A DNA stretch of 64,000 bases. Source: Escherichia coli. GTDB lineage: Bacteria; Pseudomonadota; Gammaproteobacteria; Enterobacterales; Enterobacteriaceae. The notes under the pieces are model-generated. The model was not told where the DNA came from. It saw only the letters and a list, made by a program, of their open reading frames with translations, and did no database searches. Positions 25,321 to 62,447 of this stretch are shown here, piece after piece. How positions within the stretch are numbered: the first letter of the stretch is position 1; the number at the start of each line of letters is the position of its first letter. The translations under genes and the position numbers were made by a program. The stretch is from NCBI RefSeq assembly GCF_050920415.1, contig NZ_CP169309.1; one strand, written 5' to 3'.

Positions 25321-25697
<377 letters not shown>

Positions 25698-44587: not shown

Positions 44588-44690
44588 CTGCCTGATGCGC
44601 TATGCTTATCAGGCCTACGAGGTTTCTGCAATGTATTGAATTTGCATGTTTTTGTAGGCCGGATAAGGCGTTCACGCCGCATCCGGCATG
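44588..44690. repeat. REP/BIME element
   Basis: CTGATGCGCTATGCTTATCAGGCCTAC and GTAGGCCGGATAAGGCGTTCACGCCGCATCCGGCA. Confidence 0.85.
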
Positions 44691-60311: not shown

Positions 60312-61448
60312 ATGAGCCACTTAGACAACGGTTTCCGTTCACTGACACTACAACGTTTTCCGGCGACGGATGACGTTAACCCGCTACAGGCGTGGGAAGC
60401 GGCAGATGAATATTTGCTGCAACAGTTGGACGACACAGAAATCCGCGGCCCGGTGTTAATCCTGAATGATGCCTTTGGTGCGTTAAGTTGTGCGCTGGCG
60501 GAACATAAGCCGTACAGCATTGGCGACTCATACATCAGCGAACTGGCGACGCGCGAGAATTTACGCCTCAACGGGATTGATGAATCGAGCGTGAAGTTTC
60601 TCGACAGCACCGCTGACTACCCGCAACAGCCGGGCGTGGTGCTGATCAAAGTGCCGAAAACACTGGCATTGCTGGAACAGCAACTGCGCGCATTGCGCAA
60701 AGTAGTCACGCCGGATACACGTATTATTGCCGGTGCTAAAGCCCGTGACATTCACACCTCCACGCTGGAACTGTTCGAAAAAGTGCTCGGCCCGACCACC
60801 ACCACGCTGGCATGGAAGAAAGCGCGCCTGATTAACTGCACTTTCAACGAGCCGCCGCTGGTTGATGCACCGCAGACCGTTAGCTGGAAGCTGGAGGGTA
60901 CTGACTGGACTATCCACAACCATGCGAATGTCTTCTCACGCACCGGGCTTGATATTGGCGCGCGCTTCTTTATGCAGCATCTGCCAGAGAATCTCGAGGG
61001 TGAGGTTGTCGATCTCGGTTGTGGTAACGGCGTTATTGGCCTGACGCTGCTTGATAAAAACCCGCAGGCGAAAGTGGTGTTTGTCGATGAATCACCGATG
61101 GCGGTTGCTTCCAGCCATTTGAATGTTGAAACCAACATGCCAGAGGCGTTGGATCGCTGCGAGTTTATGATCAACAACGCGCTCTCCGGCGTGGAGCCGT
61201 TCCGCTTTAATGCTGTGCTCTGCAACCCGCCGTTTCACCAGCAACATGCACTGACCGATAACGTTGCCTGGGAAATGTTCCACCACGCGCGCCGCTGCCT
61301 GAAAATCAACGGCGAGCTGTATATCGTTGCCAACCGTCACCTGGATTACTTCCATAAACTGAAGAAAATTTTTGGCAACTGCACCACCATTGCCACCAAT
61401 AATAAATTTGTGGTGCTGAAAGCGGTGAAGCTGGGGCGTCGTCGGTAA
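60312..61448 (+). CDS. rlmG: 23S rRNA m2G1835 methyltransferase RlmG
   Basis: ORF 60003..61448 trimmed to [16 protein letters not shown]; the upstream in-frame extension is antisense to ygjP. Confidence 0.9.
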
Positions 61449-61463
61449 GATTGACAGCTACCT

Positions 61464-61495
61464 GCCGGATGCGGCGTAAACGCCTTATCCGGCAA
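61464..61495. repeat. REP element
   Basis: TGCCGGATGCGGCGTAAACGCCTTATCCGGCA. Confidence 0.85.
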
Positions 61496-61613
61496 TGTCT
61501 GCCCAGTTCTGGAATCGCGCTTCCATAAAACAAAAAATCCCTGTCACCATCCTCTACATTCTCTTGTTTAGCGTTTTTCTACGTTTATTCTTCCGTCACA
61601 CAGATAAATTCAT

Positions 61614-61663
61614 CCGTTGCCAATCTGTCAACGGATGTTATCATGTTGCCAATTTGTCAACGG
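61614..61663. promoter_or_regulatory. higBA promoter with two tandem imperfect palindromes (candidate HigA operators)
   Basis: CCGTTGCCAATCTGTCAACGG (61614..61634) and GTTGCCAATTTGTCAACGG (61645..61663) directly upstream of higB. Confidence 0.6.
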
Positions 61664-61675
61664 ACGTGATGAAGA

Positions 61676-61990
61676 ATGCACCTGATAACTCAAAAAGCAT
61701 TGAAAGATGCTGCGGAAAAATACCCGCAACATAAAACGGAGTTGGTGGCTCTGGGGAACACGATTGCTAAGGGATATTTCAAAAAACCTGAGTCATTAAA
61801 AGCAGTATTCCCTTCTCTGGATAACTTCAAATATCTGGATAAGCATTATGTTTTCAATGTCGGGGGCAATGAATTACGTGTTGTAGCAATGGTCTTTTTT
61901 GAATCGCAAAAGTGCTACATACGTGAAGTTATGACGCATAAAGAATACGATTTCTTTACCGCCGTTCATCGTACTAAGGGGAAAAAATGA
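61676..61990 (+). CDS. higB: mRNA interferase toxin HigB (RelE/ParE superfamily)
   Basis: 104-aa ORF; 4-bp ATGA overlap with higA. Confidence 0.88.
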   Translation: MHLITQKALKDAAEKYPQHKTELVALGNTIAKGYFKKPESLKAVFPSLDNFKYLDKHYVFNVGGNELRVVAMVFFESQKCYIREVMTHKEYDFFTAVHRTKGKK

Positions 61991-62403
61991 TTGCGATTGC
62001 CGACATCTTGCAAGCAGGAGAAAAGCTAACTGCTGTGGCACCTTTTTTGGCGGGTATTCAGAACGAGGAACAATACACCCAGGCGCTGGAACTGGTAGAT
62101 CATCTGCTGCTCAACGATCCTGAAAACCCCTTGCTGGATCTGGTGTGTGCCAAAATAACCGCGTGGGAAGAATCAGCGCCCGAATTTGCTGAATTTAATG
62201 CCATGGCTCAAGACATGCCTGGCGGTATAGCTGTGATTCGTACCCTTATGGATCAATATGGTTTAACCCTTTCCGATCTGCCGGAAATTGGCAGTAAATC
62301 GATGGTGTCACGCGTTTTGAGCGGGAAGAGGAAATTAACGCTGGAACACGCTAAAAAACTGGCAACGCGATTCGGCATTTCTCCCGCCTTGTTTATTGAT
62401 TAA
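61987..62403 (+). CDS. higA: Antitoxin HigA (Xre-type HTH)
   Basis: 138-aa ORF immediately downstream of higB. Confidence 0.88.
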   Translation: MIAIADILQAGEKLTAVAPFLAGIQNEEQYTQALELVDHLLLNDPENPLLDLVCAKITAWEESAPEFAEFNAMAQDMPGGIAVIRTLMDQYGLTLSDLPEIGSKSMVSRVLSGKRKLTLEHAKKLATRFGISPALFID

Positions 62404-62410
62404 CGCGACG

Positions 62411-62433
62411 TGCCGGATGCGTCACATCCGGCA
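62411..62433. terminator. Stem-loop between convergent higA and fadH
   Basis: GCCGGATG-CGTCA-CATCCGGC hairpin; no clear U-tract. Confidence 0.4.
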
Positions 62434-62447
62434 CTTCAAATAACGAT

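Follow-up and report, generated by a model that had tools for sequence, protein, structure and literature searches.

A chromosomal higBA toxin–antitoxin operon of Escherichia coli with a pair of palindromes on its promoter

The window analyzed in this study is a 64,000-nucleotide stretch of E. coli DNA that contains a toxin–antitoxin (TA) operon on the + strand, between a methyltransferase gene and a convergent enzyme gene. The methyltransferase gene, rlmG, ends with a stop codon at 61448 and was identified from the ORF list, Pfam, NCBIfam, and RefSeq; Pfam detected an MTS methyltransferase domain in its product, and NCBIfam named the product RlmG. A spacer of 227 nt separates this stop codon from higB (ygjN; 61676–61990, + strand), a 104-codon ORF that is the first gene of the operon. 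It is followed by higA (ygjM; 61987–62403, + strand), a 138-codon ORF that overlaps higB by 4 nt in the sequence ATGA (61987–61990). Downstream of higA, a spacer of 44 nt leads to the stop codon (62448) of a long convergent ORF, fadH, whose product is an Oxidored_FMN / Pyr_redox_2 enzyme according to Pfam. A sequence-only reading of this DNA had placed the toxin gene before the antitoxin gene with an ATGA overlap and had named the pair higBA. The former is borne out by the ORF coordinates, and the latter by the RefSeq annotation, Pfam, and matches to PDB 5IFG.

A 1021-bp stretch of the region was 100% identical to one complete chromosome, that of E. coli strain MFDS1022581, and approximately 98% identical to the corresponding region of thousands of E. 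coli chromosomes that RefSeq annotates with rlmG, higB, higA, and fadH. Of the 5426 complete E. coli genomes, 4767 contain at least some part of this stretch. The region is the chromosomal higBA (ygjNM) locus of E. coli between rlmG and fadH.

HigB matched the Pfam family HigB_toxin (PF09907) with an E value of 3.6e-22 and a score of 78.9 bits against a cutoff of 27, and it is identical at 104 of 104 residues to chain A of PDB 5IFG, the crystallized K-12 protein designated “mRNA interferase HigB”. HigA is identical at 137 of 138 residues to chain B of the same entry, the crystallized K-12 “Antitoxin HigA”. The sole difference is D76 (codon 62212–62214) in place of A76, and this residue precedes the HTH_3 domain (PF01381) that Pfam assigned to residues 84–135 of 138, at the C-terminus of the protein. 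No NCBIfam model matched HigB or HigA; therefore, the identification of the two proteins rests on Pfam, PDB, and the RefSeq annotation. HigB is a 104-residue ribosome-dependent mRNA interferase toxin of the RelE superfamily, and work on the identical K-12 protein has shown that it inhibits growth through translation-dependent mRNA cleavage (PMC2814082). HigA is a 138-residue antitoxin and repressor with a C-terminal XRE-type helix-turn-helix (HTH), and its repression has been shown for the K-12 operator allele. With its toxin-first operon, HigB family toxin, and antitoxin carrying a C-terminal XRE-type HTH, the module falls within the HigBA type II TA systems (K-12 YgjN/YgjM subfamily). Our analysis found nothing against the higBA identification.

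The higBA operon of K-12 has been characterized by Christensen-Dalsgaard, Jorgensen, and Gerdes, who reported that YgjN/HigB is a translation-dependent mRNA interferase neutralized by YgjM/HigA (PMC2814082). Primer extension located a single higBA promoter upstream of higB, and Fig. 1B of that paper, according to its legend, marks the −35, the −10, and inverted repeats taken as putative sites of protein binding. In the same study, a PhigBA-lacZ fusion was active only in a strain lacking higBA and was shut off by HigA provided in trans, and the induction of higBA required Lon. As summarized in PMC8138530 and PMC11869752, Jadhav et al. (2020) found similar nanomolar affinities of HigA and HigBA for the operator, which means that HigB does not act as a co-repressor. 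One review describes E. coli higBA as a “single operator” system (PMC10135005), and a 2025 paper refers to the “O1-O2 sites” of E. coli (PMC12266136). HigA binding and start-site mapping, the two experiments proposed in the sequence-only reading, have already been performed by others for the K-12 allele.

Both of the palindromes that had been quoted from the letters of the DNA are present exactly as given, upstream of higB. Palindrome 1, CCGTTGCCAATCTGTCAACGG, lies at 61614–61634 with 8 of 10 symmetric pairs, and palindrome 2, GTTGCCAATTTGTCAACGG, lies at 61645–61663 with a 17-bp core at 61645–61661 in which 7 of 8 pairs are symmetric; neither is assigned to a strand. In its extended form, CATCCGTTGCCA-ATC-TGTCAACGGATG (61611–61637), palindrome 1 has 11 of 13 symmetric pairs. 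Its own 17-bp core, GTTGCCAATCTGTCAAC (61616–61632), contains the −35 hexamer of the predicted promoter and carries one mismatch to the consensus GTTGCCA-N3-TGGCAAC obtained across genera. A gap of 10 bp lies between the two palindromes, and the two sites share 88% identity over 26 nt at a spacing of 29 bp. The separation of 31 bp stated earlier is correct as the start-to-start distance of the quoted strings, but these strings are 2 nt out of register, and the in-register distance is 29 bp. Within each site, the half-sites TTGCCA and TGGCAA have 3 nt between them. The centers of the half-sites are approximately one helical turn apart, as expected of a dimeric HTH protein.

A lone imperfect palindrome is not rare, since the window contains 36 21-mers with 8 of 10 symmetric pairs. 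The 19-mer shared by the two sites, GTTGCCAATYTGTCAACGG, occurs exactly twice in the 64 kb at up to 3 mismatches (0.04 expected), and no other pair of 19-mers in the window was identical at 18 or more of 19 positions at a distance of 19–40 bp. The non-random part is the duplicated and positioned pair, not the single palindrome. A full-text literature search, which covers text without figures, matched no paper to the operator sequences in either orientation.

A consensus scan returned one good sigma-70 promoter on the + strand, predicted at 61617–61644 with 10 of 12 matches and an extended −10. It consists of a −35 hexamer TTGCCA (61617–61622), a spacer of 16 nt, a TG dinucleotide (61636–61637), and a −10 hexamer TATCAT (61639–61644). 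The −35 hexamer coincides with the left half-site of palindrome 1, the extended −10 is placed between the two palindromes, and palindrome 2 starts at the base right after the −10. This spacing would put the transcription start near 61651, and palindrome 2, because it begins directly after the −10, would cover that start. As predicted here, the layout is the usual one for an autorepressed promoter.

To compare the locus across genera, HigA homologues were searched for, and the sequences surrounding eight of these genes were retrieved through look-ups of the exact protein, which covered six other enterobacterial genera. Ten loci were then scanned for GTTGCCA-N3-TGGCAAC with up to 3 mismatches over 1.5 kb on each side of higB. 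The rlmG-higB-higA-fadH neighborhood is kept in Escherichia albertii, Citrobacter, a metagenomic relative with 83% identity, and Scandinavium. In Buttiauxella and Cedecea the module follows a P-type ATPase gene, and in Enterobacter it lies beside the ilvB leader. The toxin-first order is also found in the orthologous loci, and the 4-nt overlap is kept in six of seven of them. Exactly two matches to the motif were found in each of nine loci, namely the window, two further E. coli strains, E. albertii, Citrobacter, the 83% relative, Buttiauxella, Enterobacter, and Cedecea. The matches in these nine loci lie at −59 to −64 and −28 to −37 from the higB ATG, and no further match was found within 1.5 kb on either side. 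Scandinavium has the first site alone, at −61, and its second site has degenerated to more than 3 mismatches. A copy of the motif is thus present approximately 60 bp before higB in 10 of 10 loci and a copy approximately 30 bp before higB in 9 of 10.

Between genera, the upstream DNA could be aligned only at the two sites, at the intervening −10-like hexamer, and in the ribosome-binding region. The half-sites are held, while the 3-nt centers vary freely (ATC, TTA, AAA, AGT, GAT, and ATT). The pattern in these alignments is a phylogenetic footprint, left by two protein-binding sites that travel together with the module, and it speaks against both a hairpin function and a host regulator. A 79-codon ATG ORF (61495–61734) crosses the spacer, both operators, and the higB start in another frame; it is most likely spurious, since the DNA beneath most of it is unconserved between genera.

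Two of the compared loci showed further peculiarities. In the Scandinavium locus (1187–1456), higB was called as an 89-residue protein that ends 45 nt before higA, without the ATGA overlap; together with the degenerate second operator, this module may be decaying. A HigA homologue with 61% identity (locus 720–1917) has no HigB gene upstream and is instead preceded by a 244-residue protein without a Pfam match, in a neighborhood that contains an MT-A70 methyltransferase and an Xre_MbcA_ParS_C antitoxin-like gene. This homologue may belong to a mobile element in which the antitoxin is paired with another partner.

These comparisons bear on the nature of the sites. It is conceivable that the palindromes act not as protein-binding sites but as nucleic-acid hairpins, in RNA, as a cruciform, or as REP-like DNA, and a 66-nt stretch indeed folds at −19.4 kcal/mol with a z-score of −2.57. 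However, this z-score is unremarkable, since 3 of 200 shuffled sequences fold as well, and a transcript from the higBA promoter would not include site 1, which precedes the predicted start. Moreover, the conservation of TTGCCA and TGGCAA around a free 3-nt center, with no co-variation of pairs, is the signature of protein recognition. We consider a hairpin function extremely improbable, and an RNA-hairpin or attenuator role of the palindromes was rejected on the basis of their position and conservation pattern.

Protein-binding sites could also serve a regulator other than HigA, given that the binding of HigA to the allele of the window is a prediction. However, the motif travels with higBA into unrelated neighborhoods, those of the P-type ATPase gene and the ilvB leader, and this fits a cis site recognized by the HTH protein of the module itself. 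In a K-12 strain without higBA, HigA supplied ectopically is sufficient to shut off PhigBA-lacZ (PMC2814082). We therefore give the participation of another regulator in place of HigA hardly any credence and regard HigA as the protein that would bind the sites.

The comparison also addresses whether both sites are used. In a rival reading, which agrees with the “single operator” description of the review cited above (PMC10135005), one palindrome alone, site 1 over the −35, would be the working operator, and the other would be a decaying duplicate without a regulatory role. In most loci site 2 is less symmetric than site 1 and carries 2–3 mismatches to the consensus, and in Scandinavium it is degenerate. 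Nevertheless, site 2 is kept at the same distance from higB in nine of ten loci, where the neighboring non-coding DNA is scrambled. In Enterobacter, the promoter-proximal site is a perfect palindrome and the distal site is the weaker one, suggesting that neither site is dispensable across the family. A single working operator is, in our judgment, unlikely. The assignment of both palindromes as operators, as made in the sequence-only reading, is supported by the position of the promoter, the conservation across genera, and the published K-12 experiments.

The operator region varies within E. coli. It is present in 2847 complete genomes, of which 1505 carry exactly the K-12 allele of the 90-bp region and 474 exactly the O157:H7-type allele (61628 T, 61645 A). 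The exact allele of the window (61628 T, 61645 G; 90 bp, 61596–61685) is rare, being found in 5 of the 2847. At 61628 the window has T versus G in K-12; the G gives a perfect 9+9 palindrome at site 1, and site 1 of the window has lost one symmetric pair relative to K-12. At 61645 the window has G, whereas K-12 and the rest of the examined Escherichia loci have A; site 2 of the window has thereby gained a symmetric pair and a consensus base. Residue D76 of HigA is unlinked to the operator allele, since one of the five strains with the allele of the window has the K-12 HigA.

These alleles raise the further idea that the two sites are functionally distinct and cooperate, with their relative strengths setting the level of repression and natural alleles tuning that level. 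We regard this proposal as doubtful. If it were true, two-site occupancy with allele-dependent set-points would be a modest addition, given the single-operator view of one review.

In approximately 1900 further complete genomes, the locus is matched but the operator region is missing; this number is the difference between the 4767 genomes with the locus and the 2847 with the operator region, complemented by sampled rows. The four operator-less rows that were sampled have the same break, which was examined in detail in two strains and recognized in the other two by coverage and the pattern of the pseudogene. The break is a 325-bp deletion equivalent to 61589–61913 of the window, with 1 nt of microhomology at its junction. 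Lost with it are the promoter, both operators, and higB codons 1–79, and what remains is a 78-nt higB remnant and an intact higA. As the deletion takes both the promoter and these codons, higA in such strains is an orphan antitoxin gene without a promoter of its own.

Hairpins flank the module on both sides. Upstream, as had been noticed from the sequence, there is a REP element, TGCCGGATGCGGCGT aa ACGCCTTATCCGGCA, which forms a single imperfect hairpin at 61463–61494 (+ strand), 15 nt after the rlmG stop, with a folding energy of −23.1 kcal/mol and a z-score of −4.45. It is a GC-rich imperfect palindrome, extragenic and multicopy: its 30-nt core occurs 4 times in the window versus 0 expected, and the REP part of the region has an extra exact match elsewhere in an E. 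coli chromosome. The window has this single REP versus two inverted REPs (a BIME-like pair) in K-12-like, O157-like, and E. albertii genomes, and the difference corresponds to 56 bp missing from the window between two ATCCGGC direct repeats. The element is flanking filler outside the TA module.

Downstream, between the convergent higA and fadH stops, a GC-rich hairpin, GTGCCGGATG-cgtca-CATCCGGCAC, occupies 62407–62437 (assigned to neither strand), with a perfect 10-bp stem spanning 62410–62434. Its folding energy is −20.4 kcal/mol on the + strand and −21.7 kcal/mol on the − strand, with z-scores of approximately −4.2. The sequence after the hairpin reads TTCAAATAACG on the + strand and GTCGCGTTAATC on the − strand, with a T-run in neither direction, and a terminator scan called no intrinsic terminator here. 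A Rho-independent terminator was therefore rejected in favor of a REP-derived hairpin. The 17-nt left side of the structure is 88% identical to the upstream REP, and from this resemblance the hairpin is probably a reduced REP or a REP remnant. The stem-loop that had been described as closing the gene pair against fadH is accordingly present as a strong hairpin, just beyond the end of the segment first described (62403), but its reading as a terminator is softened. This position is occupied by a complete REP in E. albertii and by a different hairpin in Citrobacter; in the 83% relative, higA and fadH are only 12 nt apart, and the Scandinavium locus lacks a hairpin of this kind. Since it differs or is absent across relatives, the structure appears to be lineage-specific REP-derived filler and not a component of the TA system. 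It may block 3′ exonucleases and protect 3′ ends, or weakly terminate transcription by impeding read-through in both directions.

Elsewhere in the window, matches above the Rfam gathering score were found for RNase P RNA (rnpB; 25321–25697, + strand), naRNA4/CssrE (1870–1941, − strand), and ES036/CssrF (44611–44651, − strand). The latter two adjoin REP copies at 1820–1849 and 44658–44687, respectively. No tRNA genes were found in the window.

Among known systems, E. coli K-12 HigBA (YgjN/YgjM; PDB 5IFG, 6KML, 6KMQ, 6IRP, and 6JQ4) has the same locus, gene order, ATGA overlap, and two-palindrome promoter as the window. HigB is identical, HigA differs by A76D, and the operators differ by two substitutions (61628 G->T and 61645 A->G). 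K-12 has two inverted upstream REPs, in contrast to the one found here, and three positions of the downstream hairpin differ, of which two belong to the loop and one to the stem base.

HigBA of Proteus vulgaris Rts1 is likewise toxin-first, with a folded HTH repressor HigA, and the Rts1 hig promoter has two operators, O1 and O2, each bound independently by HigB-HigA (PMC12266136). In contrast to the C-terminal HTH of K-12-type HigA, that of Rts1 HigA is N-terminal (PMC6987408). The Rts1 operator sequences are unrelated to those described here, and the Rts1 complex did not bind E. coli-derived control DNA (PMC12266136).

The HigBA system of Pseudomonas aeruginosa and GraTA of P. putida are also toxin-first, and their promoters contain repeated palindromic elements bound by two antitoxin dimers (PMC6987408). 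Those palindromes (TTAAC GTTAA) adjoin one another within 28 bp, and two cooperative dimers encircle them (PMC6987408), whereas the window has two separate 17-bp sites, 29 bp apart, that bracket the −10. The HTH of the P. aeruginosa and GraTA antitoxins is N-terminal, again in contrast to the window. The operator of E. coli MqsRA (YgiUT) differs in sequence from that of higBA. MqsRA, which was characterized in the same study as K-12 higBA, is a toxin-first type II system autorepressed by an HTH antitoxin; however, its antitoxin has an unrelated fold (zinc-binding MqsA), and its toxin cleaves mRNA independently of translation (PMC2814082).

Taken together, it is nearly certain that the window carries the chromosomal type II higBA operon of E. 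coli, autorepressed by HigA at two palindromes on its promoter. In the proposed mechanism, one sigma-70 promoter would give rise to a bicistronic mRNA from which HigB and then HigA are translated, and the ATGA overlap of the higB stop and the higA start suggests that the translation of the two is coupled. HigB, a RelE-like toxin, would cleave mRNA on the ribosome. HigA dimers would bind the two 17-bp GTTGCCA-N3-TGGCAAC palindromes through their C-terminal HTH domains, site 1 containing the −35 and site 2, right after the −10, covering the start. Occupied sites would exclude RNA polymerase, so that the operon represses itself, and under stress the degradation of HigA by Lon would derepress the promoter. 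For the window, the occupancy of each site of its particular allele, the exact +1, and the translational coupling are what this model predicts.

Our analysis established the gene identities, the pair of motifs on the promoter, and their conservation across genera. The higBA operon and its operator pair are a well-studied textbook system that was already known, and its correct re-identification here matters little in itself. The study also provides two by-products. The first is a clean cross-genus consensus for the operator of K-12-type HigA, GTTGCCA-N3-TGGCAAC, present twice and bracketing the −10. The second is the natural variation at the locus, comprising operator alleles, REP copy number, and a common deletion of the promoter plus higB. 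The consensus and this variation could guide work on how both sites share repression and on whether operator alleles shift its set-point.
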